From a virus (lineage: Duplodnaviria; Caudoviricetes): a stretch of 25,869 bases of DNA. The notes beneath the pieces were generated by a model. That model was not told the DNA's origin. It ran no database searches and was given only the letters and a program-made list of their open reading frames with translations. Shown here one piece after another: positions 1,967 to 25,869 of this stretch; positions within the stretch are counted from its first letter, which is position 1, and each line of letters starts with the position of its first letter. Position numbers and translations under genes: made by a program. Where the stretch lies: positions 1-25,869 of the IMG/VR virus record IMGVR_UViG_3300031938_000027. One strand, 5' to 3'.

Positions 1967-2061
1967 GACGATCTTCCTCTTCTCTTCGAATGTGGTGTGC
2001 AGAGCAGCGGACGGGCCGGCAGCCGTTGACTGCTGGCCCGCCTGCTGCTCGACCGGTCGGG

Positions 2062-2472: not shown

Positions 2473-2488
2473 GAGCTGACCTCCGCCC

Positions 2489-3532
2489 TTACAGGACGTC
2501 GGCGACGAAGAGTCGCTTCGGGTCCGTGATGAGCGGCATGCCGACCGCGGCGACCTTGGTCCAGGTCTGGATCGGGTCGCCGGTCAGCATGGTCATGCCG
2601 ACCAGGCCGGGCAGCTCCTCGAAGAGGAGGCCGGGGTTGTCCCCGGTCGCCAGCCGCAGGCTCTCCGCGGTCACACCCCAAGCCGTGTAGCCCAGGTCGG
2701 CCGCGTTCTCCGGCAGCATGATCACCCGGTCTTCCGAGATGACCCGGACGTTCGACCCATCCACGTTGATCTTCGTGTTGTACTCGATCAACGGCGGGAT
2801 GCCGTACGCCTGAAGCACCTGGTTGAGCTGGACCTGCGTCAGCAGGTTCGGCCCGCCCGTGAGCGTCGTGCCGCGGTTGAACAGGTCGCGGATCTCGCCC
2901 ACCAACAGCAGGTTGTTGATGACCGTGTTGCTGGTGAGGATCTTGCCGGGACGCTCGCCGTTCGCGTCGACGTAGGCGTCGATCCACGCCTTGAGGTTGA
3001 GCAGCGGCGTCGCGTCGGCGTGGTCGGACCACGGCGTCGCGGCGGTCACCGCGTGTTCGGCCGGCAGACCGAAGTCCGCCTCCAACGTCAGGTTGTTCTC
3101 CCCGGCCAGGGTGAACTTGCCGTCCACGAGGACGTCGCCCCGGGCGACCTCCATCCGGCGCCGCACGTTGCCGGCGAGCGTGGCGGCGTCGGTGTAGATC
3201 GCCTCCACGTAGCCGTTGCGGTTGTCTCCGCCGGTCCGGACGCGTTCCAGCATGAGCGTTTCTTGCTCCGCCACTGGGAGTTTCTCACCCAAAGGGGGCA
3301 GCTTGATCTTCGAGCGCTGGAAGCTGTCACGCTGACCGATCGGGGTCTCCGCGTCCCACGAGCGGAACATCGCCGCTCGGTTGGTGCGGGTGACCTGGTC
3401 GATCGCGGCCTCGACGTTGCCGATGTTCCTGTCGGGGAGGAACTGGGCCAGCATCAGGGTGCTGGGCTGTGGGACCTCGCGGACGAAGCCGGTCAGTTCG
3501 ATCGGGTCCACGAAATCATCGATGATTGCCAT
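2489..3532 (-). CDS. Major capsid protein (lambda gpE-like family)
   Basis: 347 aa, follows scaffold and decoration genes; FRSWDAETPIG, KLPPLG, RRMEVARGDVL, C-terminal VGMPLI..P..LFVADVL. Confidence 0.88.
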   Translation of the reverse strand: MAIIDDFVDPIELTGFVREVPQPSTLMLAQFLPDRNIGNVEAAIDQVTRTNRAAMFRSWDAETPIGQRDSFQRSKIKLPPLGEKLPVAEQETLMLERVRTGGDNRNGYVEAIYTDAATLAGNVRRRMEVARGDVLVDGKFTLAGENNLTLEADFGLPAEHAVTAATPWSDHADATPLLNLKAWIDAYVDANGERPGKILTSNTVINNLLLVGEIRDLFNRGTTLTGGPNLLTQVQLNQVLQAYGIPPLIEYNTKINVDGSNVRVISEDRVIMLPENAADLGYTAWGVTAESLRLATGDNPGLLFEELPGLVGMTMLTGDPIQTWTKVAAVGMPLITDPKRLFVADVL

Positions 3533-9582: not shown

Positions 9583-11316
9583 TCAGCGGATTCGCTTCGG
9601 TAGGTACACCTCTTGCGCCCGCGGCTTAACGCCTTGCGCAACTGCCTCGCTCGCCGCTTCGTAGGCCAGCACAGCCGCCATCGCGGCGTCAATTTTTCGG
9701 GGCGAATGCGGGTGCTCCTTGCGGATCTGCACCCCGGCCCGGCCGACAGCGCGCCGAGCGTTGCCGATATGCCGGGTCAGACCCAGCGCCATCCGTTGCT
9801 CGTTCGTGCCGTCGCCGCGGTCCTCCGGCGGCGTGAACCCGATCCGGCCGGCGCGCACCGCCTCGTAGAAGCGCTGCAACGCGGCGACCATCGCGGTGGG
9901 CCGGTTGGTCCACCACTCGATCGGCTTCTTGACGCTGGCCTTGACCTTCATCTTCTCCGCGTACTCGCGGTGCCAGCGGTCCAGCTCGTCGCGCCAGTGC
10001 GCGGGGTCGGCGTAGAACCCGACGACCTCGAAGTGCCGCATCGCGTTGGCGACCGCGGCGTCCACCGCGGACCGGTCGACTTCCCATTCGGTGCCGCCGG
10101 CACCCTCGGGCTTCTCCCACAGGCCGAGCAGCTCCAGGTGCCCATCGGCGACGCGGCACGCCACGAGCGCCGTCGCGTCGTCGCGGACGGAGCCGTCCAG
10201 GCCGAGCGTGACCATGTCGCGGCGCTTGAGCCCGGACCCGGGCCGCCGGCACCCCTCCCACTCGTGTTCCTGAATCCAGGCGTCCGAGCTGGAGGTGCGG
10301 GCGTTCAAGAAGTATCGACGCGAGTCACTCTCAGTGTTGCGAAGATCATAAAATTCATCGATGAGGCCATCGATGTCGATCCACTCAACAGCGTCGCCGT
10401 ACGCCTCGATCAGCGCCGCACGCAGCGCATCCTCGTCGGCGGTGTCCTTGCACTCGCCATACCTGTGGTCGTACATGAGGCGGTGCCGGCCGCGTTTCTT
10501 GCGGCCCTCGCGGAGCGCCTCCGCCTCCTCGTAGGTGGCCTTCGCCATCGAGTCCTCAGACGGGTCGAACATCGTCGTGGACTCGTAAAACCAGGTACCG
10601 GAGCCCTTCTTCCGCTTGCGCATGTTCCGCGTGATGGTGCGGTACATGCGCCGCAGCTCGGGGGTTGTATAGAGGTGCGTCTCATCGAGGACGCAGAACG
10701 TCTCCTTGCCGCCGTCCTTCGCCGAGCTGGAAGCGGTCGACACCCGGATGTCGCCGCCGCCCGGCAGCAGGATCTTGTCGACGCCGGCGTCGACGCCGGG
10801 CACGAACGACAGCGGCGGCTCGTACTCCTCGTCCGTCAGGTTGAAGTGGATGGTGGCGAACACGTTGCTCGCCGCCTGGTTCTCCTCCGTCGCCAAGCAC
10901 CGGATCATCGGCGCTGTCACCGGCCGGCCCATCGGCTCGCCCGGCTCGTAGACGTAGACGAATCCCAGACCCCACGGGTCGCGGAAGACCTCACCGCCCT
11001 TGGCCCATTGCCCGGTGAACCGGGCAGGGCCGAGAGCCTCGAACAGCGCGAGCCTGGCGCCCAGGCCGCTCTTGTCGCAGCCCTTCGGTCGGCTCAGAAA
11101 CGCGCTGTCGTACAGCATGTGGTTGTTCGACGGGTGCTCGCCGATCATGTAGCAGTCGACGATGAACCCGCTGTACTCCTCGCCGTGCGTGACCGGTTGG
11201 CCCTGCACGTCGCCTGGCCCATGCCGGACGAAGTGCTCCATCCATGCCAGCGCCAGCCACCCCAAGCTGCGGTTTCGGTCTTCGTCCCGGTGTGCACGTA
11301 CCAGCGTCCGTGGCAT
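9583..11316 (-). CDS. terL: Terminase large subunit
   Basis: Walker A SRPKGCDKS, Walker B VLDETH, nuclease LGLDGS..DDATAL, C-terminal KIDAAMAAVLA. Confidence 0.95.
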   Translation of the reverse strand: MPRTLVRAHRDEDRNRSLGWLALAWMEHFVRHGPGDVQGQPVTHGEEYSGFIVDCYMIGEHPSNNHMLYDSAFLSRPKGCDKSGLGARLALFEALGPARFTGQWAKGGEVFRDPWGLGFVYVYEPGEPMGRPVTAPMIRCLATEENQAASNVFATIHFNLTDEEYEPPLSFVPGVDAGVDKILLPGGGDIRVSTASSSAKDGGKETFCVLDETHLYTTPELRRMYRTITRNMRKRKKGSGTWFYESTTMFDPSEDSMAKATYEEAEALREGRKKRGRHRLMYDHRYGECKDTADEDALRAALIEAYGDAVEWIDIDGLIDEFYDLRNTESDSRRYFLNARTSSSDAWIQEHEWEGCRRPGSGLKRRDMVTLGLDGSVRDDATALVACRVADGHLELLGLWEKPEGAGGTEWEVDRSAVDAAVANAMRHFEVVGFYADPAHWRDELDRWHREYAEKMKVKASVKKPIEWWTNRPTAMVAALQRFYEAVRAGRIGFTPPEDRGDGTNEQRMALGLTRHIGNARRAVGRAGVQIRKEHPHSPRKIDAAMAAVLAYEAASEAVAQGVKPRAQEVYLPKRIR

Positions 11317-11341
11317 CGCTGCACCACCCGGCTACGGGTGG

Positions 11342-11848
11342 TCAGGCCGGTCGAGTCAGGCGCCGACGCCGGTCAGCGATCGGAGTCACCGACGCGCCGC
11401 CGCTGCTGCCGGCCAGGGCCACCTCGGTGACCTCGACCTCCAACTCCGGCTCGTCTTCCTCCTCGATCGAGGCAGGGTCAGCGACGTACCGGATGCGCAG
11501 CTTCCGCAGCGCCTCCAGCGTCGTGCCCATCTGGTCCTCGCGGCGGCGGATCTCGACGGCCATCGTGGTCGTCGCTTCACCCTGCTCGGCGAGCTTCCAG
11601 TAGGCGTTCTTCATGAACGCGGTCTCCAGCGCGAACGTCCAGTCGACCGCGCGCCACAGCACGCAGTGCGGCATCTCCCGGACCTGCTCCCACCACTGCT
11701 CGACCATCTGGTGCCACCGCTCACGGCGGGGCAGCTTCGGCAGGTCGGGGGACGGGCCGCTGTACGGCGTGTCCACCACGTCGGTCCAGTCGGCGTTCTG
11801 GGTGCGGCCGTGCTTGACCGTCTTGGCGGCGGGGCCTCGGTGTGCCAT
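11342..11848 (-). CDS. terS: Terminase small subunit
   Basis: Immediately upstream of terL; WW..V..MPHCVLW..VDW.FALETA...EIRRREDQMGTT..ALRKLRIRY; start ATG 11848 after GGGAG. Confidence 0.85.
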   Translation of the reverse strand: MAHRGPAAKTVKHGRTQNADWTDVVDTPYSGPSPDLPKLPRRERWHQMVEQWWEQVREMPHCVLWRAVDWTFALETAFMKNAYWKLAEQGEATTTMAVEIRRREDQMGTTLEALRKLRIRYVADPASIEEEDEPELEVEVTEVALAGSSGGASVTPIADRRRRLTRPA

Positions 11849-11936
11849 CGGAATCACTCCCATGTCGGGATGCAGCAGCACGCCCAGCCCCTGTCGGGCC
11901 GGGCGCAGGTGAACAGGTCAAGGGGGAGTGGGCCAG

Positions 11937-12239
11937 CTACAGGGTGGCGGCCTGGGCGGAGTCGGCGCCGGCGTGCGGGTCGAGCTGCACACTGCGCAGC
12001 TCGTCGGCCATCGCCGGGTCGTGGTCGGCAACCGCCTCGGCGAACCCGGCCCGGACCGCATCGGTGACCATGCGGGTGATCTCGGCGGACGCAGCGCGGA
12101 GCGACTCAGCGTCCACGACCAGGACGACGGGAAGCTGTACCGGCGGCATCTGTACCGGCGGCAGCAGCACCACCGGGGCGGGCTGCTCCGGCTCGACCCG
12201 ACGGCCGAACGACTGGACGGGTGTGGGTGCGGATCGCAT
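11937..12239 (-). CDS. Hypothetical protein (100 aa)
   Basis: GAGAGG RBS; short internal PPVQ duplication. Confidence 0.6.
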   Translation of the reverse strand: MRSAPTPVQSFGRRVEPEQPAPVVLLPPVQMPPVQLPVVLVVDAESLRAASAEITRMVTDAVRAGFAEAVADHDPAMADELRSVQLDPHAGADSAQAATL

Positions 12240-12259
12240 GGTGGACGCCGCCTCTCAGG

Positions 12260-12490
12260 TCAGGGCTGCTCGCCGACCGACTCGTACCGTTCACGGCCGT
12301 CAAGCGAATGGTGGACGTAGAGCCAGCCGAACGACCCGTCCGGCCGCGGCGCGGGCTCAACGCGCGGCCCACACGGACACCGGTCCTCGCCGTCGATGTC
12401 GTGCTCGATCAGGTCGGCAAGCGGGTGGACAATTACGGTGCCAAACGTCAGGCCCTCGATGCGCTCCCAGCCGGCGGTCACCGTGCTCAC
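12260..12490 (-). CDS. Small His/Cys protein (VHP..D.IEH....CPCGP...PDG...VHHSLDGRE)
   Basis: GTG start overlapping upstream TGA; motif seen in small actinophage proteins and in 4854-5048. Confidence 0.7.
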   Translation of the reverse strand: MSTVTAGWERIEGLTFGTVIVHPLADLIEHDIDGEDRCPCGPRVEPAPRPDGSFGWLYVHHSLDGRERYESVGEQP

Positions 12491-12780
12491 TCCGGGTCCA
12501 GCCAGACGAGGCGGGTCGCGCCGCCGTGCCCGTGCACAGCCTCCACGGACTCCGCGGAGGGCCACAGCACTGTCGACCGGTGCCGGCCGCGCCACACCAG
12601 CCGCACCCAGCCGGCCGGAAGTTGGAGCAGCGTCCCGTCCGGCCAGGTGATGAGGCATCCGCGCGGATACTGGACCCCATCTGCGACAACACCAGATCCG
12701 GACACCCCAGACACGTCGGTGTCCCGGTGCAACTCGAACCGCCGAACCCCGCCCATGACACCCCCAATGACCTGCGACAA
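12487..12780 (-). CDS. Conserved actinophage hypothetical protein
   Basis: RRFELHRDTDVSGVSGSGVVADGV...VEAVHGHGGATRLVW, a motif recurring in actinomycete phages; start uncertain. Confidence 0.75.
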   Translation of the reverse strand: MSQVIGGVMGGVRRFELHRDTDVSGVSGSGVVADGVQYPRGCLITWPDGTLLQLPAGWVRLVWRGRHRSTVLWPSAESVEAVHGHGGATRLVWLDPE

Positions 12781-12880
12781 CGCCCTGAGATGCCCCGTGT
12801 GGGCTGTTCCCGCGCGTGGTTACTGGGACATGGACAGCGTCGCGTTCGCCGCTCTGCGTGGACGGTTCAGCGACCGATCA

Positions 12881-13207
12881 TCAGCCGATGATCTCGGCCG
12901 TGACGCTGGGCGTCGCCGAGAACGTCACCGTGATCTGCTTGTTCGACCCGACGAACGCGCTGGTGAGCTTCCACCTGCGGCGCGCACCCGCGGCGACCGC
13001 CGCCGGCGGCTCGGTGCCGGTGTTGCCCGCGGGCGTCTTCCCCGGGTCCGTGAACGTGACGTTGATGCTGCCCCCAGAGCCGTTCGTGACTTCCAGGATC
13101 TTGCCGACGTTCGCGCGGTGGATCAGCTCGGTCGCTCCGACCGCGGCGGGAGCGGCCAGAGACCCAGCGCCTCCGGCGACGTCGGTGGTGGTGACGGGAA
13201 TCGCCAC
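12881..13207 (-). CDS. Small beta-rich protein, possible virion accessory protein
   Basis: GAGGAGGG RBS before GTG 13207; ILEVTNGSGGSINVTF. Confidence 0.7.
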   Translation of the reverse strand: MAIPVTTTDVAGGAGSLAAPAAVGATELIHRANVGKILEVTNGSGGSINVTFTDPGKTPAGNTGTEPPAAVAAGARRRWKLTSAFVGSNKQITVTFSATPSVTAEIIG

Positions 13208-13239: not shown

Positions 13240-13548
13240 CTACCGCAGGGCCGGGTGCGTCTCCGGCGGCCGGTTCAGCGGTGGCCGGGCGGCCACGCCT
13301 TCCAGCGCCGACTTCCTTCGGTGGCAGGGCTCGCACGCCGGCTGGAGGTTCTCCAGCGAGTGGTCGTCGCCCCGCCGCTTGTGGTCGACCTGCGTGGCAG
13401 CGCCAACGCACAGGCCCGGGTAGCGCAGCGCGCACACCCGCCCATCCCGGGCGAACACCTGATCACGGACCCCGCCGGGCTTGTCCCAGTCGGCGGGGAG
13501 CCGGGCACGCCGCGTCGAGCCCGCCCACGGCCGGCGCACGCCGGTCAC
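13240..13548 (-). CDS. HNH endonuclease (terminase-associated type)
   Basis: RDGRVC...C...ATQVDHK..GDDHSLENLQPACEPCHRRKS. Confidence 0.9.
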   Translation of the reverse strand: MTGVRRPWAGSTRRARLPADWDKPGGVRDQVFARDGRVCALRYPGLCVGAATQVDHKRRGDDHSLENLQPACEPCHRRKSALEGVAARPPLNRPPETHPALR

Positions 13549-13967
13549 GTTGTGGACTCCCGGTCTTCCAGACCGACCGCGGAGCGCAGCTCGCGGCTGG
13601 CCTGCCGCGTCCGGCCGGCCAGCGCCTCGGCGTCGGACGTTCCGTCACCGGTCGCGGCGAGCAGCTCGGCGAGGCCCTCGGCGAGCGCGTTCAGCTTGTG
13701 CTGCGTCGCCTGGTCGGAGCGGGTGGCCGTGTTCTGGAGGAGTGCCACCAGTAGGAATGTGACGATGGTCGTGGCGGTGTTGATCACCAGTTGCCACGTG
13801 TCGACGTTCCCGAACAGCGGCAGCGACGGCGCCCAAACCAGCACCATCAGCACACATGCCGCGAAGAACGAGGCCCGCGACACCATCCGCGCGGCGACGC
13901 CGGCGAATCGGTCGAACCAGCCGACGCGCGCGGACACCTCGCTCGGCATCCGCTCCCGGCTGCTCAT
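13545..13967 (-). CDS. Low-affinity iron permease (Fet4-like) family membrane protein
   Basis: FDRFA..AARMVSR..FF..CVLMVLVW.P....DTWQLVINTATTIVTFLLVALLQNT..RSDQA.QHKLN signature. Confidence 0.82.
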   Translation of the reverse strand: MSSRERMPSEVSARVGWFDRFAGVAARMVSRASFFAACVLMVLVWAPSLPLFGNVDTWQLVINTATTIVTFLLVALLQNTATRSDQATQHKLNALAEGLAELLAATGDGTSDAEALAGRTRQASRELRSAVGLEDRESTT

Positions 13968-15153: not shown

Positions 15154-15351
15154 ATGATCACACTGGCACTGGTGGGGGCACTGGCCATCCTGGCAGCACT
15201 GATGATCCACACCGTGCGGCGCAGGGCCACCGTGCAGCGCAGGGCAGCCGGCCACGCCGTGATCCACTCCGCTCCCATCGCTGACCCTGCCTGCCCAGAC
15301 CCGGACATGGGCGCTCTCTCGTGGCTCATTTGGGACGGACTTGACCGCTGA
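15154..15351 (+). CDS. Small membrane protein (65 aa)
   Basis: GGGAG RBS, MITLALVGALAILAALMI hydrophobic helix followed by basic residues; TTGACA at 15070 upstream. Confidence 0.55.
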   Translation: MITLALVGALAILAALMIHTVRRRATVQRRAAGHAVIHSAPIADPACPDPDMGALSWLIWDGLDR

Positions 15352-15364
15352 CCCTGCCTGCCCA
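15279..15364 (+). repeat. 19-bp direct repeat CGCTGACCCTGCCTGCCCA
   Basis: Copies at 15279-15297 and 15346-15364. Confidence 0.8.
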
Positions 15365-15394
15365 CCCGTTCCCCGTATCAGGAAGGCGCCCACC

Positions 15395-18300
15395 ATGAAC
15401 GCCAACAGCACCCCCACCCCCCGCATCGGCGACGTGATCCTCATCCCCGCCGGCGCTTGCCCCGAGTACCGCGCCGCGTTCCGTCTCCGCGTCTCGGAGA
15501 TCCTCACCCGGGCCGGTCGCGGCACCCTTGACCGGCCGATCGTGGGCGGAACCGTGGTCAACGCCAACGGGCAAGACCGCATGCTCAAGGGCACCCCGGT
15601 CGAGCGCGCTTGCACGGTCGACCTGGGCGCGGTGACCGTGGTCACCCCCGCCCCCGCGACCGACGCGGAGATTCGCGCGGCCTACGCCGATCATGCGGCA
15701 CGCGAGATTGAGCGCACCCGGTGCGCTCACGCACCCGATGCCCTGGGCTGCACGCACGTGCACTGTGTCGGCGTGCCACCGGTCGATGCCGCGACGTCGG
15801 TCGAGCCGGAAGCGTCGGACGTTGCGACCCCCGCGGAGTACGGCACGCAAACGCTCGCACGGACGTTGCGTGACACGCTCCGCGCGTATCCCACGATCAC
15901 GGATGCGTCCATGCCGCGGGTCACGACTACGGGTGAGGGCAACGGCCGTACGCGTCCGTTCACTGTGGCTACCTCCCAGGTCGACGGACACGCCGTGAAC
16001 GTGATCATGTGGGAGGGTCCGCGCTGCGCGCCGATGACCGCGGTCATGATCGATGGCGTACTGATCAACGCCGATGTTACCGGCGGACGTGCCATGCGCA
16101 ACGATGAGCGCACGAACATGATCGTTTGGCGGGTAGCGGACGCGCTCCGCGACACGGCCACGGTCGAGCCTGCCGATACGTGTTGCGCGCAGTGTGGAAG
16201 CCCGGCGAGTAGCAACCGTCACCATGTGGCGCGCCCAGCAGGGCACCCGTTTGTCGCCGAGGGTGAGGCCACCATGTCCGCCACCGTCGCCCAGGTCGAG
16301 CCGGCCACGGTCACGCTTGCCGATCCGGCCGCGCGTGCGCTCGCCACCATGACCGCGCTTACAGCCGATGTCGTGCACGTGGGATGCCTGCACGGTCTGA
16401 AGGGTGCGCCCGGGTGTCACGTGACCGGGTGTGACATGCCGATCCGGCCGGCACTGGTCACGTGCCCCGAGTGTCTCGCGTGGCTTGCCGGCGAGTCCGG
16501 CCGCGCGTGGGCCGGACGTTGGGCTGGCAACTTTGCCCGTATCGCGCAGAGCGGATACGGGTGCGCCGGGTTTACCCCCCGCGACGGGTGGCCGCACACG
16601 TGCGCCGGGTGCCTCCGTCCCGACGTCGCGCACACCCCCGCACTGTCCGCCTACCCGCACAACCTGGGCGCCGATGCGCCCGTAACCGAGAGTGAGGCCA
16701 CCATGTCCGCCACCGTTCCCGCCACCGTCGCCCAGGTCGAGCCGGCCGCCGTGCCCGTGGTCGACGCGGCCCCCGATGTGCTTGCGGCGTTGCTCGCGGG
16801 TGAGCCGATCCCCGCGGACGCGCTTACCCCGGTCGAGCCGGCCCGGCTGTCTGTGACGGTCGACCGCGACACGCTCGCGGACGCGCTCACACTGGCCGCG
16901 TGGTCCGCCCCGCGTCGCCCGTCCGTGCCCGTCCTGTCGGGCGTGATGATCACGGCCGACGCGGATGCCGGCACGGTCACGTTCGGGTCGTTCGATTACG
17001 AGGTTTTCTCGATCAACGCGCTTCCCGCGACCGTGACCGCGGCCGGCCGCGTGTTGGTCGATGTCAAGGCACTCCGCGACATGGTCAAGACGTTCCCTAA
17101 GGTCAAGCGACTGACGGCCGCCCAGGTCCGTAAGGGTGTGACCCTGCCGGCCGGTGCGGGCATGGTCACACTCACGGACACGGGAAGCGCGGTCACGGTC
17201 GAGTACGGCGCGGCCCGTGCGTCCCTGCCGACCCTGCCCGCGGAGGATTACCCGGCGATCATGCTCGGTACCGCGACCCCCGCAACCGTCGCCCAGGTCG
17301 ACGCGGACATTCTGGCCGCGACCGTGGCCCGGGTGACCGTGGCCGCGGGTAAAGACGACACGCTGCCAATGCTCACGGGCGTGCAGCTCACGACGGACGC
17401 GGACGGACTCCGCGCCCACTTGGCAGCAACCGACCGGTACCGTCTCGCGGTCGACGCGACCCGTTGGGTGCCGGTCGTGCCGGACGGGGCAGAGCCGCGC
17501 GAGCACATCATGCCCGCGCTCATCCCCGCCGCGACGCTCGCCTACGCCGCAAAGTGGTTCGGCCGTACCGCGGGCGTGGTCACGGTCGGCATGACGTACG
17601 GCACCCGGTCGACCATGACGGGCAGTGGTAAGACCGCTAAAACGGTCGTGACGACGTACGCCGATTCGATCACGCTGACGTGCGGCCCGGTCACGATCGG
17701 CACCCGCACCCTTGACGGGGAGTTTCCCGCGGTACGCGCGTTGCTCCCGGACACGTACGCCGGTACCGCCCAGGTCGACGCGCACGCACTGGCCGATGTC
17801 GTCGCACGGGTCGGCATGGTCGCGGCGCGTTCAACGCCGGTTCGGCTCACGTGGTCGGCCGACGCGGTCACCGTGGCCGCGACCGGTGACGGTGACGCGA
17901 CCGCATCGGAGACCATGCCCGCGTCCGCGGACGTCGCGGACGGGTTCACGATGGGCCTTAACCACGCGTTTCTGATTGACGGACTCCGCGCGTTCTCCAA
18001 AGGTGCGGCCGTCCGGTTCGGGTTCGTGTCCGCGTCAAAGCCGGCCGTCATCGAATCGGCCGACACGGACGGGCCGGACGCGTTCCGCTATCTGATCATG
18101 CCGGTTCGTATCGGCGGGGGTAGTGAGTCGGCCGCCCCGTCTACCCCGGTCGGTCACCGGTCGGTTGCGGTCGAGCCGGCCCCCGTGGTCGAGCCGGTCG
18201 TCCAGGTCGAGCCGGTCGCGGACGTGACTCCGGTCGAGCCGGCCGCCCCGGCCGCCCCGGTCGAGCCCGTCGCCCAGGTCGAGCCCGTCGCGGCCCCCGT

Positions 18301-19618
18301 GGTCGCACCGGCCGCCCCGGTCGCGGTCGAGCCGGTCACGGTGCCCGCGTCGGTCGACCTTCACGGGGTCACGGTCGAGCGTGTCGCGGAGATCCTGCGC
18401 ACCGGCACGTGGTCGAGCGCGGTTGTCCGCGTCGGCAAGGGTCGGGAGCGGCGCCCGATGGGCGTGAGGGTGCTCGCGCTCAACGCCGGCCGGCTGGACT
18501 ACGCGACCGAATACAAGGCGGTTGCGGCCGTGCTCGCGACCCTGGGCGGGGGTTGGAACCGTGAGGTTAAGGGGTTCGCGTTTGCCCCGTCTGAGACGGT
18601 TTGGAACGGCGCCGGTGCGGGTGCGCGGACGCCGGAACCGTCAGCGAAGGTGACCGGGTGGCTTGACCGGTACGCCCCGGCCGCGGACTCCGCCCCGGTC
18701 GCCCAGGTCGAGCCCGTCGCGGACGTTGCGCCCGCTGAGACGGTCAACGCGGCCCCCGCGGACGTGCCCGCGGTCGACGCGCACGACGCGGCGGAACATG
18801 CCGCCCAGGTTGTGCACGACGCGATGACCGCGGGTGACTACCCGGGCGCACGGGTGGCCCTGGGCGACGTTGCCCGGGTGGCCCCGGCCGGGTACCTCGT
18901 CGCGGGTCGGTTCACGCTTGACGCGCTCGCCGGGATCATCGACGCGGCGGAGCGTGACGCGCTCGCGTCGGCCCCCGCGCCCGTCGCCCAGGTCGAGCCG
19001 GCCGCCGTGGTTGAGCCGGCCGCGATCCTGAAGACGCCTAGCGCTCCCGGCGTTGTGCTGCCCATGGTCGCGGCGGGTACCCGCGTGCGCGTGACCCGTG
19101 AGCCCGTGACCGTGGTCGGGTCGGTCGAGTACGAGCCGGGCATGGTTCGCGTCCGTCACGCCGACGGTTCGGTTACCCGGACGCTGCGCGAGTACGTGAC
19201 CCCGGTCGAGCCGGCCGCGCCCGCGGTCGAGCCCGTCGCGGCCCCCGTGGTCGAGCCGGCCGCGATCGACGCTGACGACGCGGACACCCTGGCCGCGGGC
19301 ACGGCCGCCGCGCTCGCGGCCATGGTCGAGCCGGTCGAGCCGGCCGCCGCGTCCGTGGTCGAGCTGGACGCGGCCGGGCGGCTGTCGTTCACGATCGCGC
19401 CGTACGCGGAAGATGTGAACGAGGGTCGGTCGTACAAGGCGACGCGCAAGCACGTTCACGCGGCGCTGCGCGCGGCGAAGGTGCGGGCCACGGTGCACGC
19501 GGACACCGACAGCCGGCGGGGTATGCACGTTGAGTGCGACGCCGCCGACCGGGTGCGGGTGGCCGTGATCGTGCGTAACACCGTGACCGTGGTCGAGCCG
19601 GCCGCCGCGACTGTCTGA
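15395..19618 (+). CDS. 1407-aa multidomain protein containing a DNA polymerase III beta sliding-clamp (DnaN) domain at about 16847-18112
   Basis: AGGAAGG RBS; RRPSVPVLSGV, SFDYEV, GRVLV, LPAEDYP, AAGKDDTLPMLTGV, AATDRYRLA, LDGEFP.VRALLP, N..FL.DGL, KPAVI, YLIMPVRI are actinobacterial DnaN motifs; flanking modules joined by VEPA linkers. Confidence 0.88.
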   Translation: MNANSTPTPRIGDVILIPAGACPEYRAAFRLRVSEILTRAGRGTLDRPIVGGTVVNANGQDRMLKGTPVERACTVDLGAVTVVTPAPATDAEIRAAYADHAAREIERTRCAHAPDALGCTHVHCVGVPPVDAATSVEPEASDVATPAEYGTQTLARTLRDTLRAYPTITDASMPRVTTTGEGNGRTRPFTVATSQVDGHAVNVIMWEGPRCAPMTAVMIDGVLINADVTGGRAMRNDERTNMIVWRVADALRDTATVEPADTCCAQCGSPASSNRHHVARPAGHPFVAEGEATMSATVAQVEPATVTLADPAARALATMTALTADVVHVGCLHGLKGAPGCHVTGCDMPIRPALVTCPECLAWLAGESGRAWAGRWAGNFARIAQSGYGCAGFTPRDGWPHTCAGCLRPDVAHTPALSAYPHNLGADAPVTESEATMSATVPATVAQVEPAAVPVVDAAPDVLAALLAGEPIPADALTPVEPARLSVTVDRDTLADALTLAAWSAPRRPSVPVLSGVMITADADAGTVTFGSFDYEVFSINALPATVTAAGRVLVDVKALRDMVKTFPKVKRLTAAQVRKGVTLPAGAGMVTLTDTGSAVTVEYGAARASLPTLPAEDYPAIMLGTATPATVAQVDADILAATVARVTVAAGKDDTLPMLTGVQLTTDADGLRAHLAATDRYRLAVDATRWVPVVPDGAEPREHIMPALIPAATLAYAAKWFGRTAGVVTVGMTYGTRSTMTGSGKTAKTVVTTYADSITLTCGPVTIGTRTLDGEFPAVRALLPDTYAGTAQVDAHALADVVARVGMVAARSTPVRLTWSADAVTVAATGDGDATASETMPASADVADGFTMGLNHAFLIDGLRAFSKGAAVRFGFVSASKPAVIESADTDGPDAFRYLIMPVRIGGGSESAAPSTPVGHRSVAVEPAPVVEPVVQVEPVADVTPVEPAAPAAPVEPVAQVEPVAAPVVAPAAPVAVEPVTVPASVDLHGVTVERVAEILRTGTWSSAVVRVGKGRERRPMGVRVLALNAGRLDYATEYKAVAAVLATLGGGWNREVKGFAFAPSETVWNGAGAGARTPEPSAKVTGWLDRYAPAADSAPVAQVEPVADVAPAETVNAAPADVPAVDAHDAAEHAAQVVHDAMTAGDYPGARVALGDVARVAPAGYLVAGRFTLDALAGIIDAAERDALASAPAPVAQVEPAAVVEPAAILKTPSAPGVVLPMVAAGTRVRVTREPVTVVGSVEYEPGMVRVRHADGSVTRTLREYVTPVEPAAPAVEPVAAPVVEPAAIDADDADTLAAGTAAALAAMVEPVEPAAASVVELDAAGRLSFTIAPYAEDVNEGRSYKATRKHVHAALRAAKVRATVHADTDSRRGMHVECDAADRVRVAVIVRNTVTVVEPAAATV
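16263..16716 (+). repeat. 25-bp direct repeat GTGAGGCCACCATGTCCGCCACCGT containing SD-like GAGG and in-frame ATG
   Basis: Copies at 16263-16287 and 16692-16716. Confidence 0.85.
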
Positions 19619-20353: not shown

Positions 20354-22267
20354 ATGAGCAACGCACGCGCCGCACGCATGGCACAGCGCGCCCGCAAGCA
20401 CGAGGAAGCCGCCGCCCGCGTCATCGATGGATTCGTGCGCACCCCCGCCGGCCTGGCCGATGACCTGGTGTCGGGGCACCGCGACATGAGCGCATTTACT
20501 TGGGGCGCGCGCATCCTGGAACCGTCCGCCGGTGACGGCGCGATCGTGCGCGCCATCCTGGAAGGTGACCGCGACGTGACCGTGATCGCGGTCGAGCCCA
20601 ACGGGGAGCGGGCCGACGCCCTCGACGCGCTCTCCGGTGAGGCAGACCACGCCGGCCGCGTGATCGTGTTCCGGGGCGCGCTTGAGCAGTACGCCGAACA
20701 CGTCGCATGGTGCCGCGAGTACCCGACAGCGGAGGTTGCCGGCCTGCCGGCGACCATGCACGGCGACCCGTTCGACGGCGTGATCATGAACCCGCCGTTT
20801 GGTGACTCGTCCCGTGACCTGGTGTGGATCGATCACGTGCGCACCGCGTGGGAAATGCTCCGGCCGGGCGGACTTCTCGTGTCGATCGTGCCCCCGTCGT
20901 ACGCGTTCCGCTCCGACAAGGCGCACCGCGCGTTCCGCACCTGGGCGGAATCGCACGGCGCGACGTACGCCAAGCTTCCCGGTCAGCCGTTCGCAGAGTC
21001 CGGCACCGGCACGCAAGCGGGCATCCTCACCGTGCCCCGGCCGATGCCGGCCCGCGCGGATGGGCTTCCCACGTGGCTTTACGCACCCGCCGCCGGTGTG
21101 CCGGTGCCGGTGCGGGGTCTGCCGGTGACCACGTCCGCGGGTGCCCTGACCATGCCCGTACAGGAGTACAGCGATTTTTCCGACGGGTCGCGCCCGCGGG
21201 TGCTCCGGTACTCGGGCACGTGCCACACGTGCGGCCGGTGCTGCTGGACGCACGACGACCGGCACGACGCCGCCGCGTTCGAGGCGATCACGGTCGATGC
21301 CGCCGAACACGCCGCCGCCGGCCCGTCCGTCGTGCTCTGCCTCGAACACGGCACGGGCGGGGAGGAGACGGCCGCCGCGCTCGCCGCCGCCGCGCCGCAC
21401 TGGACCCCGGACGCGGACGCTGACCCGCTCGCCGAAACCGGGCCGGTCGTGTACCCGCTCGACCTGGACGCGGGCACCTGGGCGACCGTCCGTGGGATCG
21501 ACTCCCACGGGTGGGTATTCACCATCACGGGTCGCGTCATGTGCACCCCGGAGCGCGTCGCGGACCTGGGCGAGTCGGCCTCGTTCCATGACGAGCGGAT
21601 CGGCGTCACGCTGCGCACCGTGCGCGGGTGGACGGTCGAGCTGTACGCGCTGGAAGACCAGCGGGTGACCGTGCGCGACGTGCTCACCGACGCGGTGCCG
21701 GCCCCGGCCGCAGAACCCCTGCCGGACTGGATGCCTCAACCGGCCGCCGGTCGGCCGCTCGCGACCGCGGGCAGCGCGGAGCGCCTCGCCGAGTCCGCCG
21801 ACATGGCCGCGCACCACCAGGCCGCCGCGGACGCCGCGCGGACGCACATCGTGGGCGGGTCGACCGTCGTCGCACACCCCGACCACGGCGCACCGGTCAT
21901 CGTCGCGCAGACACGGCGGATCGACATCACAGACGCAGGCGACAACCCGCCGGCGGGCGCGTGGGTCGCGGACCCGTCGCGCACCCCGGTCGGCGCCACG
22001 CTCACCGTGTACGGGGTCCGCACCGGGCAGGCTGACGAGATGATCCGCCGCGAGCACGTCACGCTCGACCACGACACGCACGAGGCGGCGCAGGCGCTCG
22101 CGGAAGAGGTCGCCGCCGGCGAGCCGATCACGCCCGGCGTGGCCGTCTGGGTGCTGGTCAGCCGTGACAGCATCAATCACGAGTACGCCGACGCGCGACG
22201 GGCCGCGCCCGCGCCCGCGCCGTTCGTGTCGGACTGGTCGAACTGGACTGAGCCGGCGCTGTTCTGA
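20354..22267 (+). CDS. DNA amino-methyltransferase (likely m6A) with long C-terminal accessory domains
   Basis: FVRTP (motif X), ILEPSAGDGAI (motif I), AVEP (II), VIMNPPF (IV), LRPGGLLVSIVP, PFAESGT (VIII); then CxxC domain and small beta domains. Confidence 0.88.
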   Translation: MSNARAARMAQRARKHEEAAARVIDGFVRTPAGLADDLVSGHRDMSAFTWGARILEPSAGDGAIVRAILEGDRDVTVIAVEPNGERADALDALSGEADHAGRVIVFRGALEQYAEHVAWCREYPTAEVAGLPATMHGDPFDGVIMNPPFGDSSRDLVWIDHVRTAWEMLRPGGLLVSIVPPSYAFRSDKAHRAFRTWAESHGATYAKLPGQPFAESGTGTQAGILTVPRPMPARADGLPTWLYAPAAGVPVPVRGLPVTTSAGALTMPVQEYSDFSDGSRPRVLRYSGTCHTCGRCCWTHDDRHDAAAFEAITVDAAEHAAAGPSVVLCLEHGTGGEETAAALAAAAPHWTPDADADPLAETGPVVYPLDLDAGTWATVRGIDSHGWVFTITGRVMCTPERVADLGESASFHDERIGVTLRTVRGWTVELYALEDQRVTVRDVLTDAVPAPAAEPLPDWMPQPAAGRPLATAGSAERLAESADMAAHHQAAADAARTHIVGGSTVVAHPDHGAPVIVAQTRRIDITDAGDNPPAGAWVADPSRTPVGATLTVYGVRTGQADEMIRREHVTLDHDTHEAAQALAEEVAAGEPITPGVAVWVLVSRDSINHEYADARRAAPAPAPFVSDWSNWTEPALF

Positions 22268-22276
22268 CGGCCGTCA

Positions 22277-22310
22277 CGGTGCCGGGCGGGCGGCTGCTCG
22301 CCCGGTGCCG
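22277..22310 (+). terminator. Hairpin after methyltransferase gene
   Basis: CGGTGCCGGGCGGGC-GGCT-GCTCGCCCGGTGCCG with G-U pairs. Confidence 0.5.
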
Positions 22311-22326
22311 CGTTGGCCCGTTATGC

Positions 22327-22348
22327 TAACCTCGCCCTAGCAGTTAGG
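22327..22348 (+). promoter_or_regulatory. Conserved 22-bp promoter/operator motif, copy 2
   Basis: TAACCTCGCCCTAGCAGTTAGG, preceded by TGC (extended -10-like TGnTAACCT). Confidence 0.7.
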
Positions 22349-22368
22349 TCACGAATCAAGGGGGAAAG

Positions 22369-23619
22369 ATGACCGCAACCACCGACCCGGCCGACGCCTA
22401 CCGCGCCGCGCTCGCGGCTGCCGGCCTGCCGGACGGGCTCACGTGGTCCGTCAAGGTGACCGCGCGCCGCGCGACCGCCACCCCGGCGAAGACCCGCCGC
22501 ACGCTCGGTGCCACGATCGCCCCGGGCGGTACCGCCGTCGTCTTCACCGTGCCCGCCGACACCGACCCCGGCAAGGTCGCCGACGCCGCCCGCCGCATGC
22601 GCGGTAAGCTCGCCGTTGCCGCGGAGGACATGCGCGCCCGGGGCGTGACGATCGTCCGTAAGCAGCTCGTGAACGGCGAAGGGTTCCCGTTCGCGGGCAC
22701 GAACCACCGTCTCCGCCTGGTCGATGACAGCGACACCGGCCGGCGCTGCCCGTGCCAGTGCTCGCGGCTCACCACCGAGCACCCGGGCGTGCCGATCGTC
22801 GCGGAGCGCGGACACCCGACGTGGTCCGGCGTCCGCACGTGGCAGCTCACGATGCGCCGCGACGCAGCCACCGCCCGGACGGTCATCGAGTGGTACCGCG
22901 AGCAGGGCCGCGCGTGGCTCGACCGGCACGTGCCGGACCTGCTCCGCCGGGTGTACGTCCAGCCGGCCGACTGGCCGACGTGGGAGGTTCGCCCGTACCG
23001 CGAGGGTGAGGGCTACGGCGGCACGTGGGGGACGTACCTCCCGCGCACGCACACGATCCGCCTCTCCTGGCTCGTGTTCCAGTTCCCCGCCGACCTGCTG
23101 CGCTACGTGGTCGCGCACGAGGTCGCGCACGCCGCGATCCGCGGCACCCACGGGCACGGCCGGCCGTGGCAGCTCGTGGTTTCGCGACTGTGCCCCGACT
23201 GGGAGACGTTGGACCCGCGCGCCCGCGCACTGCCCGGCCTGTGCCTCTGGGCCGGCGAGCTGGACACACCGCCGGCGGCGCCGGAGGAGTTCCCGGCCTG
23301 GATGCTCGCCGACCTGCGCGAGCTGCTCGCGGGCGCGTCCTGGTCGGTGGGTTCGTTCCGGCCGGGCCTGTTCAAGCGCGGCGAGCCGGTCGCCGCGGAC
23401 GTGCTCCGCGTGCCCACCCGCGAGACGTGGTCGAGCGGCGCTCGCGACATGGCCCGCCGCGTGCTGGACGGCATCGGCGGGCACATGTCGACCGACGCCG
23501 ACGGGTTTCTGTTCCCGCTGGGCGAGGGTCCCGAGCGGCTGCGCGCGTTGCTGGGCGACGTCCCCGCGCCGGTCGCCCCGTTCGTGTCCGCCTGGTCGAC
23601 GTTCGCGGGTGCGCGATGA
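22369..23619 (+). CDS. YgjP/DUF45-like (M48/zincin) metallohydrolase with extra C-terminal domain
   Basis: VNGEGFPFAG..HRL, WGTY....TIRLSW....P.DLLRYVVAHEVAH....H...W..V.RLCPDW. Confidence 0.82.
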   Translation: MTATTDPADAYRAALAAAGLPDGLTWSVKVTARRATATPAKTRRTLGATIAPGGTAVVFTVPADTDPGKVADAARRMRGKLAVAAEDMRARGVTIVRKQLVNGEGFPFAGTNHRLRLVDDSDTGRRCPCQCSRLTTEHPGVPIVAERGHPTWSGVRTWQLTMRRDAATARTVIEWYREQGRAWLDRHVPDLLRRVYVQPADWPTWEVRPYREGEGYGGTWGTYLPRTHTIRLSWLVFQFPADLLRYVVAHEVAHAAIRGTHGHGRPWQLVVSRLCPDWETLDPRARALPGLCLWAGELDTPPAAPEEFPAWMLADLRELLAGASWSVGSFRPGLFKRGEPVAADVLRVPTRETWSSGARDMARRVLDGIGGHMSTDADGFLFPLGEGPERLRALLGDVPAPVAPFVSAWSTFAGAR

Positions 23620-24509
23620 TCAGTGACGGTCAGGGCGTGCTGTTCGAGCTGGGCGACCTATGCCAGCGCTGGAACACCGGCGCGCACACCTGGGCGCCCG
23701 CGGACACGTTCCGGGCGAGCCGGTACGCGGTCCACCAGATCGACACGGCGACCGCGCGCCGGTTCGTGACCGGACACCACTACAGCCGGTCGTACCCGGC
23801 CGACCGGGCGCGGTTCGGGATGTTCGAGGGGTCGCGCCTGGTCGGCGTGGCCGTGCTCGGGCAGCCGATGCACGACCGGGTGACCGGCAAGGCGTTCCCG
23901 ACGTTGGGCCGCATGGACGCCGCCGAGTTGTCCCGGTTTGTCCTGCTCGACCACGTGCCGGCGAACGCGGAGACGTGGCTCCTTGCCCGCGTGTTCCGGC
24001 TCGCCGCCGGCGACGGGCTGCGCGGCGTGGTCGCGTTCTCCGACCCGATGCCGCGCCGCACCGCCGCCGGTGAGCTGCTCATGCCCGGCCACTTGGGGCA
24101 CATCTACCGGGCCGGCGCCGGCGCCACCGGCCGCTACACCGGGCGCGGCACCCCCCGCACGCTGACGATCCTCCCGGACGGGCGCGTGTTCTCCGCCCGC
24201 ACCCGCGCGAAGGTCACCGCGTGGGACCGGGGCGGGCCGGCCGCCGTCCGCGAGCTGGTCGACCTGGGCGCGTCCGGCCCGGTCGACGGGCACGGCTGCA
24301 CCGGCTGGGCGGCACTGGGCGGCATGACCGCCGTCGAGCGCGGCGCGTGGCTCACAGACGCGCTCGCGGCCGTCGGCGCCCGCACCGTCCGGCACCGCGG
24401 AAACCACCGGTTCGTGTGGGCGATCGGCGACCGGGGAGCCCGCCGGCGTACCCCGATCGCGCTTGACGCGCTCCCGTACCCGACGACCCTGGACGCGGTG
24501 ACGGCATGA
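23616..24509 (+). CDS. Mom-family adenine-modifying GNAT enzyme
   Basis: ATGA overlap start at 23616; ARRFVTGHHYS.SYP...FGMF...LVGVAV.G.P, ELSRFVLLD.VPANAETW, GVVAFSDP, GHLGHIYRA...YTGR. Confidence 0.82.
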   Translation: MISDGQGVLFELGDLCQRWNTGAHTWAPADTFRASRYAVHQIDTATARRFVTGHHYSRSYPADRARFGMFEGSRLVGVAVLGQPMHDRVTGKAFPTLGRMDAAELSRFVLLDHVPANAETWLLARVFRLAAGDGLRGVVAFSDPMPRRTAAGELLMPGHLGHIYRAGAGATGRYTGRGTPRTLTILPDGRVFSARTRAKVTAWDRGGPAAVRELVDLGASGPVDGHGCTGWAALGGMTAVERGAWLTDALAAVGARTVRHRGNHRFVWAIGDRGARRRTPIALDALPYPTTLDAVTA

Positions 24510-25165
24510 CCCGGCAACCGCTCCAGCGACCGGCCGGGCACCCGCGGGCGTGCATCTGCACCGCGTGCGGGTTCGCGGAGATGGACGAAATCCGGATCGG
24601 GTTCGGGCTGGAGCCGCTCGGGTTCGACGGCGACCCGTTCGTGAGGGTCCCTCGGGCGTACGTGCAAGCGGTCATGAACGGCGGCCGGGTCCCGATCGTC
24701 CTGCCGGACGAGCTGGAGGACGCGAGCACCGCGGAACTGTACGCGGCCGGCGCGCTGGAGCCGGTGCCCGTGCACGTCGAGGACGTCGCCGCCGGCATGT
24801 TCTGCCGGGTGCAGGGCCTGGACCCGGCCGGCGAGTGGGTCGACGTGACCGGGTACATCGGCTGGCCCGCCGACGCCGGTGACGGCCTGGTGAGCGTGCC
24901 TGTTGCCGGCGTCGCGGTCCTGGTCGACGCGGACGCGCGGCTTGAACTGGCGCCGGAGCCGTGGGACCCGCCGCCGCTGGTCGAGCGGGGCCGGCCGTAC
25001 CGCGTGGACCTGATCAACGTCGCTTGCGAGGTGACCCGATCGGTGCAGGTGTCCAACCTCGCCCAGGTCGACGCGCTCGCCCGCGACCACCACCCCGACC
25101 CGCTCGACCCTGACGGCGCGCTCGCGCCGGCGCTCTACTGCCTGAACTGGAGGGGCCAGCGATGA
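24506..25165 (+). CDS. Hypothetical protein (219 aa) with N-terminal H..C.C..C and a small beta-barrel-like module
   Basis: ATGA overlaps at both ends. Confidence 0.7.
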   Translation: MTRQPLQRPAGHPRACICTACGFAEMDEIRIGFGLEPLGFDGDPFVRVPRAYVQAVMNGGRVPIVLPDELEDASTAELYAAGALEPVPVHVEDVAAGMFCRVQGLDPAGEWVDVTGYIGWPADAGDGLVSVPVAGVAVLVDADARLELAPEPWDPPPLVERGRPYRVDLINVACEVTRSVQVSNLAQVDALARDHHPDPLDPDGALAPALYCLNWRGQR

Positions 25166-25869
25166 CCACCACCCCCGCCGGCGTGCCCGGCGTCGACTAC
25201 CCAGCCCCGCCGTACCCGGGGATCACCTACGTGATCCCGTGCGGGGGCGGGAAGCTCGACCATGCCGCGCCGGCCGCCGAGCTTTACACGGGGAGCATGT
25301 TCCGGCACGCCCTGGCGAACGTCGAACGGCACGCGGCGATGGATGAGGACGAGGGCCGCGGGCCGGCGCGGGTGCTGATCCTGTCGGCGCTGCACGGCCT
25401 GGTCGAGCTGGACACGGTGCTAGAGCCGTACGACCTGCGGATGGACGCGCCGGGGTCGGTGACCGCGGAGACCCTCACCGCGCAGGCGTCGGCGCTGGGC
25501 ATCGACTGGGGCAGTGCGGTGTACACGTTTCTGCCACGGGCATACCTCGCCCGACTTGATGGGGCGTTGCGGACGCTCAACGTGTACGTGCAGGACGTGT
25601 ACGAGGCGTGCGGCGGCAACGGCGAGCAGCGCCGCGTGTTGTCGATCGTCGGCACCAACGACCGGGCCGGCGTGGTCGAGCTGCCCGACGGCCCCGGCAC
25701 GCTGGTGTGGATCGGCGCGGACGTCAACGGGTTCGCGTGGGGCGTGCCGATGCTGGTCAGCTACGGCCGGCTACGGGACGCGCAGACACTGCCGATCGCG
25801 CGGGCGCCGTGGGTGCTGGACTCCCGCGGGTTCAACGAGATCCGCGAGCACGGCCGGTGGACAATCGAC
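25162..25869 (+). CDS. DUF6884-like domain fused to a TGT/DpdA-like (queuine tRNA-ribosyltransferase-like) domain; truncated at window end
   Basis: Not in ORF track; translated by hand: VIPCGGGK...APAAELYTGSMF...VLILSALHGLV..DTVLEPYDLRM, then VPMLVSYGRL...LP.ARAPWVLDSRGFNEIREHGRWT. Confidence 0.75.
   Translation, partial: MTTTPAGVPGVDYPAPPYPGITYVIPCGGGKLDHAAPAAELYTGSMFRHALANVERHAAMDEDEGRGPARVLILSALHGLVELDTVLEPYDLRMDAPGSVTAETLTAQASALGIDWGSAVYTFLPRAYLARLDGALRTLNVYVQDVYEACGGNGEQRRVLSIVGTNDRAGVVELPDGPGTLVWIGADVNGFAWGVPMLVSYGRLRDAQTLPIARAPWVLDSRGFNEIREHGRWTID

Follow-up and report, generated by a model that had tools for sequence, protein, structure and literature searches.

Why would DNA-modifying enzymes of a phage carry, at their ends, short words that resemble the peptides by which bacterial proteins hold on to the sliding clamp? 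The question is raised by an uncultured actinobacterial phage, IMG/VR virus record IMGVR_UViG_3300031938_000027, a stretch of 25,869 nucleotides (25.9 kb; an estimated ~30% complete, ~70% G+C) that was analysed over its whole length and is called the window hereafter. In this window, a methyltransferase-like protein ends in EPALF and a Mom-family protein, encoded two genes further on, carries QGVLF near its start. The original prediction, made from the letters of this DNA, had read both words as clamp-binding-like motifs that recruit the two modifiers to a phage or host clamp. The bacterial beta-clamp motif has the consensus QL[S/D]LF or QLxLx[LF], and its clients include Pol II, Pol III alpha, Pol IV, UmuC, MutS, and Hda. 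Our analysis suggests that the Mom QGVLF and a longer methyltransferase tail, PFVSDW...EPALF, are conserved motifs on disordered ends, which likely dock both enzymes on a beta clamp and couple modification to replication; we give this reading a probability of about 0.6. Judged by sequence, QGVLF is a good clamp motif, and EPALF is a degenerate form of one. The features that carry the argument are these:

15341..19618, plus strand: giant single-frame open reading frame (ORF), 1425 residues from a TTG at 15341; homologues point to a start near 15395

16850..18115, plus strand: complete beta sliding clamp with three DnaN domains, residues 504-925 of the giant ORF; candidate docking partner

20354..22267, plus strand: methyltransferase-like gene, 637 residues, motif I LEPSAGDG, motif IV NPPF

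22220..22237, plus strand: PFVSDW in the methyltransferase-like tail, a Trp-anchored element upstream of EPALF

22250..22264, plus strand: EPALF, C-terminal pentapeptide of the methyltransferase-like protein and a degenerate form of the family's QLxLP[VL]/QxxLF element

22369..23619, plus strand: YgjP-like/SprT-like metallopeptidase gene, 416 residues, HEVAH

23578..23595, plus strand: PFVSAW in the C-terminal region of the YgjP-like protein, a Trp-anchored element; the protein ends ...APFVSAWSTFAGAR-stop

23616..24509, plus strand: Mom-family gene (adenine methylcarbamoylation type), 297 residues

23631..23645, plus strand: QGVLF, Mom residues 6-10, a QxxLF clamp-binding-type pentapeptide in the N-terminal leader

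Such words are rare in the window. Its 24 called ORFs (7,435 residues) contain just two [QE]xx[LM]F words, EPALF and QGVLF, and both lie at protein termini.

The Mom assignment rests on PF25680 (76.2 bits against a cut-off of 27.1, E 3.5e-21) and on PHROG 1384, Mom-like DNA modification protein; the closest named relatives are from Micromonosporaceae (Hamadaea, Micromonospora). Read from 23616, ATG ATC AGT GAC GGT CAG GGC GTG CTG TTC gives M-I-S-D-G-Q-G-V-L-F, and both DNA and translation thus bear out the placement of QGVLF directly after MISDG. The leader peptide, MISDGQGVLFELGD, begins at an ATG that runs into the stop codon of the preceding gene (ATGA), and its start is like that of close homologues (P0002, MIDGQGSLFELGELCQRW); its pentapeptide matches the QxxL(x)F / QL[SD]LF clamp consensus. 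Among the best 120 of 347 Mom homologues, 117 could be anchored on a conserved CQRW block, and the leaders of 17 of these contain Qxx[LM]F. When the residues of the same leaders were shuffled (n=2000; the same kind of control was applied to the tails described below), the mean was 0.43 and the maximum 4. Fourteen of the 17 fall within the first 20 homologues listed. In this motif the Q, L, and F are fixed and the middle pair varies (GV, GS, VP, EP, LT, LS, LA, LG, and others), yielding words such as QLTLF, QLSLF, QLALF, and QEPLF, while the distance to the QRW anchor is 5-6 residues in 16 cases and 3 in one.

Some of the motif-less Mom records are explained by miscalled start codons. The Mom of a complete relative of the window (P0023, from the virus record G001 described below) has an annotated start of MHSWRP, and the DNA upstream encodes (GTG)NGQLTLDGTWCQRW. 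In that locus (L090 ~1703-2500, minus strand), reading from a GTG that overlaps the upstream stop yields (M)NGQLTLDGTWCQRW, so the database start is probably wrong. Since gene callers often miss the Mom leader, counting motifs in protein records gives lower bounds. An AlphaFold2 model of the window Mom, built on a 99-sequence alignment, has a mean predicted local distance difference test score (pLDDT) of 91.4, against a mean of 47 for residues 1-10, and its first strand begins at residue 15, in agreement with the claim that the motif lies on a flexible terminus. Additionally, a strict motif is present in the C-terminal 25 residues of 2 of the 120 homologues (P0045, ...EQLALFAPGW..., and P0087, ...AQAELFPEL...), and both of these proteins are without the N-terminal one. 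Because it is found at either end of the protein, the motif behaves as a docking peptide rather than as a part of the fold.

The methyltransferase-like protein, a candidate N6-adenine-type DNA methyltransferase with a SAM motif I and a catalytic motif IV, matches PHROG DNA-methyltransferase families over residues 24-233 and no Pfam family at E 0.01 or better; some of its homologues carry a precomputed PF05175, and one source labels relatives 'predicted RNA methylase'. Positions 22250-22267 read GAG CCG GCG CTG TTC TGA, that is, E-P-A-L-F-stop, and EPALF does end the protein at the DNA level. Across the 21 members of the family, ~450 residues align and are followed by a hypervariable, indel-rich Pro/Ala linker, after which the sequences converge again in the last 15-25 residues. 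It is this alignment that supports the proposed flexible-terminus position of the methyltransferase motif. The tail consensus is P-F-V-S-x-W-x-Q-L-x-L-P-x, with QLxLF forms as well, and examples are ...PFVSGWSQLTLPV, ...PFVSGWGQLALPV, ...FRSDWAQLDMFA, ...FVSDWGQLMLQF, and ...VSAWGEQLSLLDA; the words QLTLPV, QLALPV, QLDMFA, and QLMLQF occur in other relatives. A strict clamp-type word is present in 8 of the 21 tails (shuffle 0.12). The W motif is present in 14 (shuffle 0.19), and a Trp lies within the last 20 residues in 20 of them. The window tail, ...APFVSDWSNWTEPALF, keeps the Trp element and has lost the Gln, so its EPALF is lineage-specific and probably a weakened version of the family's QL element. 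Regarding conservation, the original prediction therefore holds for the Mom QxxLF and for the methyltransferase QLxLP[VL]/QLxLF element, which are kept, but not for EPALF itself, which is QPALI in the nearest relative. As a control, 77 complete, distantly related copies of the methyltransferase domain from other phages were compared, and the strict word ends only 1 of them, which rules out the tail as a generic feature of that domain. The same protein has two conserved regions without a family at residues ~285-440, the first Cys-rich (invariant C290 and C293, plus W298 and D301) and the second reading VYPxDL...TGRVM.

The best-kept feature of the methyltransferase tail is its Trp element, PFVSxW, whose W628 follows the hypervariable linker and is nearly invariant in the 21 homologues. 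The original prediction had rightly seen a clamp-like C-terminal word in this tail but had overlooked PFVSxW, which also occurs on the neighbouring YgjP-like peptidase. The latter assignment is given by PF01863 (72.8 bits against a cut-off of 26, E 5e-20) and PF10263 (E 9.7e-07), with the HExxH motif present as HEVAH. Its homologues end in ...PFVSGWSSVPT..., ...PFVSGWASLPA, ...PFVSSWGGAL, and similar strings; the W motif is found in 10 of 17 such tails, and a Trp within the last 20 residues in 16 of 17. Two observations relate the Trp element to the canonical word. In the alignment, the Trp column of the methyltransferase family stands at the Phe position of that word in P0138 (QLDMW) and P0139 (QLDIW). 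Furthermore, the element overlaps or abuts QL words in some tails, as in QLPLFVSTWG (G001), PFVSGWGQLALPV, and DPWGTVLAEQLQLF.

How far the element extends within one genome can be seen in G001, a virus record of 166,387 bp that is complete, has terminal repeats, and was read in nine stretches; its methyltransferase is 58% identical to that of the window. Its clamp fusion is an ORF of 1372 residues (1383 stop to stop), adjoined by a 14-kb cluster in which seven proteins have PFVSGW-type ends, an eighth has a degenerate one, and DpdA has a looser form. The ends are as follows:

L090 771-13565 (minus strand) and L089 18570-19553: location of the tagged cluster

methyltransferase: ...PFLSGWGDLADA

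YgjP-like peptidase: ...PFVSSWGGAL

PAPS-reductase-like protein: ...GQLPLFVSTWGAS

DUF6011/DUF3072 protein: ...AFVSGWGAA

two proteins without known family: ...AAFVSGW-stop and ...EPFVSGWADQATA

100-residue protein, degenerate end: ...PPVSWWGAS

DpdA: ...SWATPAHEQLDLFAA, containing ...EQLDLFAA

No PFVSGW-type tail was found on the other frames of G001 supported by the G+C content at third codon positions (GC3; 374 frames called in 166 kb). Qxx[LM]F is equally scarce here, with 2 occurrences in the 41,079 residues of 175 ORFs, both within the last 12 residues, on DpdA and on the PAPS-reductase-like protein. Two further members of the lineage have comparable clusters. The metagenomic locus L181 encodes a 1474-residue clamp fusion, followed by a protein ending ...AFLSGWATL, a methyltransferase ending ...PFVSGWRDVEQLSLI, a DUF6884-DpdA with ...QEALPIFALMG..., and a protein ending ...SFVSGWRDVNPAGC. 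L178 has six tagged proteins, one of them PAPS-reductase-like (...GQLPLFVSGWSGP...), and its Mom begins MSLIIPGQGTLWEL, containing QGTLWE. More distant members merge both elements in one unit (...DPWGPVIAEQLTLL, and ...DPWGTVLAEQLQLF on the DpdA of L180).

The Trp element was seen only where the clamp sits in a giant fusion, namely, in the window, G001, L181, and L175, with DPW-type tails in L003 and L180. It was present in 0 of 32 viral loci with stand-alone clamps, where regular-expression matches such as TDHWDGY and DPWDDW are unrelated strings; PFVSxW as a general actinophage clamp tag is thus ruled out.

The canonical word also recurs outside this lineage and on other enzymes. In bacteria, 80 genome loci with Mom were collected, and among the 54 that could be anchored, 8 have the strict word (shuffle 0.25) and 17 the broader Qxx[LM][FW]/QxxLx[FLYIW] (shuffle 0.91). 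Mom carries QLSLFD in Hamadaea, Micromonospora, Plantactinospora, and Salinispora, and the Streptomyces Mom reads Q[ED]xLPF[ED]DL. In Micromonosporaceae and Kribbellaceae, QLSLFD stands directly before CQRW, mostly as M-L-E-QLSLFD-PAFCQRW (L093, L094, L096, L110). In the Micromonosporaceae loci, where Mom has an N-terminal QLSLFD, the next gene encodes a PF01555 methyltransferase that ends in ...EQLTLFDAP..., and in L095, L110, and L126, a DpdA ending ...DQLTLFDD... comes next. These three loci (~10000-13200, plus strand; Micromonospora, Salinispora) have three consecutive genes, each with QL[ST]LFD at one terminus. In another actinophage contig (L258 9619-12309, plus strand), a PF01555 methyltransferase lies directly downstream of a stand-alone clamp and ends ...SQPALFDDEAIA; we equate its word, QPALF, with the EPALF of the window, and it belongs to an unrelated methyltransferase family. 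Full-length DpdA relatives end in ...EQLDLFAA (G001), ...QEALPIF... (L181), and ...DPWGTVLAEQLQLF (L180). Consequently, the clamp-type motif has been found on five enzyme families, which are Mom, two methyltransferase families, DpdA, and PAPS-reductase-like proteins.

Which clamp might receive these ends? In the window, the clamp is not a separate gene; it is embedded between N- and C-terminal extensions of the giant ORF, which is atypical for DnaN, and the ORF codes in the same frame along its whole length according to the GC3 frame plot. The Pfam domains PF00712, PF02767, and PF02768 follow one another in order, all above the cut-off, and PHROG 947 also matches. The closest solved chains are beta sliding clamps or DNA polymerase III beta chains (8dj6, E 1.2e-49; 5ah2; 3p16), with which ATDR[YF]RLAV and EFP..R.LLP align. 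The translation of the ORF contains the pocket-type strings LAATDRYRLAV, DGEFPAVRALLP, and RYLIMPVR, so the statement that the clamp retains ATDRYRL, FP.VRALLP, and YLIMPVR stands for ORF 15341-19618, in alignment with solved clamps. From these features, the domain is an actinobacterial-type DnaN with intact pocket strings. The nearest relatives of the giant protein in a library of 1.8 billion proteins are 1000-1400 residues long with the clamp in mid-protein (P0167-P0170, P0173-P0175, P0179, P0183, P0211). Neither Pfam nor PHROG assigned a family to the flanking parts of ~500 residues outside the clamp, and the C-terminal 500 residues had no usable match in the ESM Atlas. VAQVEP and similar Pro/Ala/Val/Glu strings repeat many times as interdomain linkers of the giant protein, and strings of this kind also precede the tails of tagged proteins (e.g., the P0127 tail).

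The bacterial loci point to a second partner. With the window clamp domain as a tblastn query (E 1e-5 or better), no clamp was found within 10 kb of the Micromonosporaceae Mom loci, and one was found at this distance in 3 of all 80 genome loci, none of them from Micromonosporaceae. This rules out that the Mom motif is tied to a neighbouring phage clamp. Five Micromonosporaceae genomes have one housekeeping-type dnaN each, and three show a weak second match that was not placed in the Mom loci. On this basis, host DnaN would be the obvious partner in these genomes. Because no clamp gene was found within 10 kb of relatives with a perfect QLSLFD, host DnaN is as good a target as a phage clamp, and the window has two candidate partners, its own clamp domain and host DnaN. 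G001 provides a related clue. Pfam detected no DNA polymerase family among its 94 larger ORFs, and if the phage is truly without a polymerase, its clamp would work with the host polymerase and would need an ordinary pocket, which fits the conserved pocket strings. The same genome (L082-L089) encodes DnaB, SSB (end ...DEPPF), ThyX thymidylate synthase, thymidylate kinase, and dCTP deaminase.

According to the mechanism that we favour, the disordered ends of the modifiers would dock on the beta sliding clamp, and the docked enzymes would modify phage DNA at or just behind the replication fork. PFVSxW, which the YgjP-like protein and other neighbours have as well, would be a second docking element, specific to this lineage and directed at the same hub (the giant protein with the clamp). 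Clamp binding, the identity of the clamp (the phage domain, host DnaN, or both), and the coupling to replication are what we infer from the sequences. Several observations weigh against this interpretation. EPALF has Glu at the position of the consensus Gln and falls outside the strict QxxL(x)F pattern; the nearest relative, P0122 (86% identical), has QPALI, ending in Ile instead of Phe, and EPALF may be a decaying remnant. No strict motif is present in 100 of the 117 anchored Mom homologues. Where it is present, its spacing to the fold is almost constant, the AlphaFold2 model has a short helix at residues 6-9, and a structural role for the L and F of the motif is conceivable from the model. 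PFVSxW fits no described clamp motif, as it has no Gln, has a small residue before the Trp, and stands alone on several proteins; YgjP-like tails carry it with no QL word, the strict clamp word being found in 0 of 17. In the 32 viral loci with stand-alone clamps, which lack the element, only sporadic ordinary QxxLF-type tails were seen. Finally, the word is enriched over shuffles in all three sets (17/117 versus 0.43 for Mom, 8/21 versus 0.12 for the methyltransferase tails, 8/54 versus 0.25 for the genome loci), but kinship among the homologues inflates these contrasts.

Some of these points lead directly to a different explanation, in which the PFVSxW tail, including that of the window methyltransferase, docks on a receptor other than the pocket, either an extra domain of the giant protein or another hub, and only the QxxLF words are clamp motifs. 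The restriction of the element to the lineage with the giant clamp fusion suggests a lineage-specific receptor, for instance, a domain fused within the giant protein in place of the universal pocket. The YgjP-like tails and the protein in which Trp is the very last residue (...AAFVSGW-stop) are in line with this, and the pocket strings of the window clamp, being ordinary, give no reason for a new motif. On the contrary, the Trp at the Phe position in P0138 and P0139 and the overlap with QL words in the same tails tie the element to the clamp word, a Trp-containing clamp motif is known in actinobacteria (ImuB, QLPLWG, PMC10421592), and no candidate receptor domain came to light outside the clamp by Pfam, PHROG, or the Atlas. 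We hold this explanation to be possible but unlikely. A bolder variant is that the giant clamp protein serves as a tool-belt, a ring on DNA whose private P-F-V-S-G-W tag, evolved from QLxLF, would capture an island of proteins comprising Mom, the methyltransferase, DpdA, the PAPS-reductase-like protein, the SprT/YgjP-like peptidase, and several family-less proteins. The tag would sometimes still overlap QLxLF, and the giant protein or its fused domains would do the capturing. This variant is tentative, and we would not expect it to be the case. If it were true, the phage would have a specific, replication-coupled DNA-modification and anti-restriction factory on one clamp.

Two other explanations dispense with the clamp. 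The words could be chance or purely structural, without a docking role, and the missing Gln of EPALF, the small share of anchored Mom homologues with the strict pattern, and the nearly fixed spacing of the motif to the Mom fold can be cited for this. Nevertheless, the word is rare and enriched over shuffles in three protein families, the Mom leader is modelled with low confidence, conservation persists across hypervariable linkers, and the word recurs on unrelated enzymes, all of which make this reading very unlikely. Alternatively, the tails could be packaging or delivery tags that send anti-restriction proteins into the capsid for co-injection, like the capsid-internal proteins of other phages, the likeness to clamp motifs being a coincidence. 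The tagged genes do lie together in one cluster beside the structural module, oriented divergently to it; for several of their products, no DNA-modifying domain was recognised, and the PHROG families matched by the methyltransferase domain include those of giant multidomain proteins. However, QL[ST]LFD is found on Mom, methyltransferase, and DpdA in bacterial genome loci, Mom can carry the motif at either terminus, the cluster starts with a clamp gene, and DpdA, Mom, and methyltransferases are generally known to act on DNA inside the cell, which renders the packaging explanation most improbable.

Docking of both modifiers on a clamp can be compared with several known systems. In eukaryotes, DNMT1 and the Spartan/SprT-type protease bind PCNA via PCNA-interacting peptide (PIP) boxes. 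There, as proposed here, a methyltransferase (DNMT1 being a maintenance enzyme) and a SprT-family protease are tethered to a clamp by short peptides at termini or in linkers, and the window methyltransferase and YgjP/SprT-like protein share a tail; the clamp is PCNA, however, the motif is another one, and the tags are not homologous, which makes this an analogy only. The ends described here resemble those of the bacterial clamp-motif clients in having a Gln/Leu/Phe word of 5-6 residues on a flexible terminus, with a variable middle and often an acidic residue after it (QLSLFD, QLTLFD, QLALPV). Unlike the canonical clients, which are polymerases and repair or regulatory factors, their carriers are DNA modifiers, the window methyltransferase has Glu for Gln, and their clamp binding is putative. 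Mycobacterial ImuB binds the clamp via QLPLWG (PMC10421592). Its Trp at the aromatic position is comparable to QLDMW and QLDIW (P0138, P0139), QGTLWE (L178 Mom), and ...QLPLFVSTWG (G001), whereas PFVSxW has no Gln and has Gly, Ala, Asp, or Ser, instead of Leu, before the Trp.

Among phage proteins, MuC of phage Mu, an activator of late transcription that drives mom expression, has a clamp-binding motif according to a preprint (bioRxiv 10.1101/2025.01.04.631326). It is likewise a phage protein with a host-type clamp-binding motif, but MuC is a transcription factor, whereas here the Mom-type enzyme itself carries the motif. An earlier in vitro study claimed that T4 alpha-glucosyltransferase (alpha-GT) binds the gp45 clamp, as cited in a 2025 preprint that itself found no interaction of alpha-GT or beta-GT with gp45 in vitro or in vivo (bioRxiv 10.64898/2025.12.06.692756). 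This would be a DNA modifier riding a clamp, although the precedent is contested and the clamp type and the motifs are different. For plasmid single-strand methyltransferases, PMC7736820 suggests an intermediary host protein that connects the methyltransferase to Pol I and notes the interaction of Pol I with the sliding clamp. A full-text search, with most subscription journals outside its scope, found no papers on clamp motifs in phage methyltransferases, Mom, or DpdA. To the theme of clamp-type tails on modifiers, the present case contributes actinophages, the Trp element, and a clamp fused within a giant protein.

If the tags do bind the clamp, phage DNA modification (Mom-type carbamoylation, adenine methylation, and 7-deazaguanine insertion) would go hand in hand with the replication fork, which would explain how every new copy of the phage genome is protected before it is exposed to restriction, in parallel to DNMT1 on PCNA in animals. 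Together with the clamp fusion, the Trp tag would bring in a docking code peculiar to this lineage, and such motifs could help single out unannotated phage genes that act at the fork.

The surroundings of the two modifiers in the window are as follows:

minus strand, Pfam assignments: structural and packaging genes, namely, small and large terminase, SPP1-type portal, lambda-E-type capsid, head decoration protein, and NlpC/P60 protein

plus strand, in order: giant clamp ORF, 197-residue ORF, methyltransferase-like, YgjP/SprT-like, Mom-family, 219-residue ORF, DUF6884-DpdA

25162..25869, plus strand: DUF6884 + DpdA gene (7-deazaguanine DNA transglycosylase-type), cut by the window end, with its C-terminus outside

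The divergent plus-strand cluster starts at 15.3 kb, beside the structural module. In the last gene, PF21818 matches with E 7.4e-15 and PF23859 with E 1.5e-05, the latter under the cut-off because of the truncation. A single gene fuses DUF6884 to DpdA both in the window (25162-25869, plus strand) and in L181 (11671-13023), and the fusion suggests, from its domains, a 7-deazaguanine-type DNA modification in this phage besides the Mom-type and methyl modifications. No close nucleotide relatives of the window were found among phage records, where a 100-base match of another gene to mycobacteriophages was the only one; viral contigs scanned with a single Mom or methyltransferase protein gave no match, but alignment-based searches did yield loci. 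Among the small genes upstream of the terminase, an ORF at 13545-13967 (minus strand) matches the low-affinity iron permease family PF04120 (E 5.5e-25) and adjoins an HNH endonuclease ORF.

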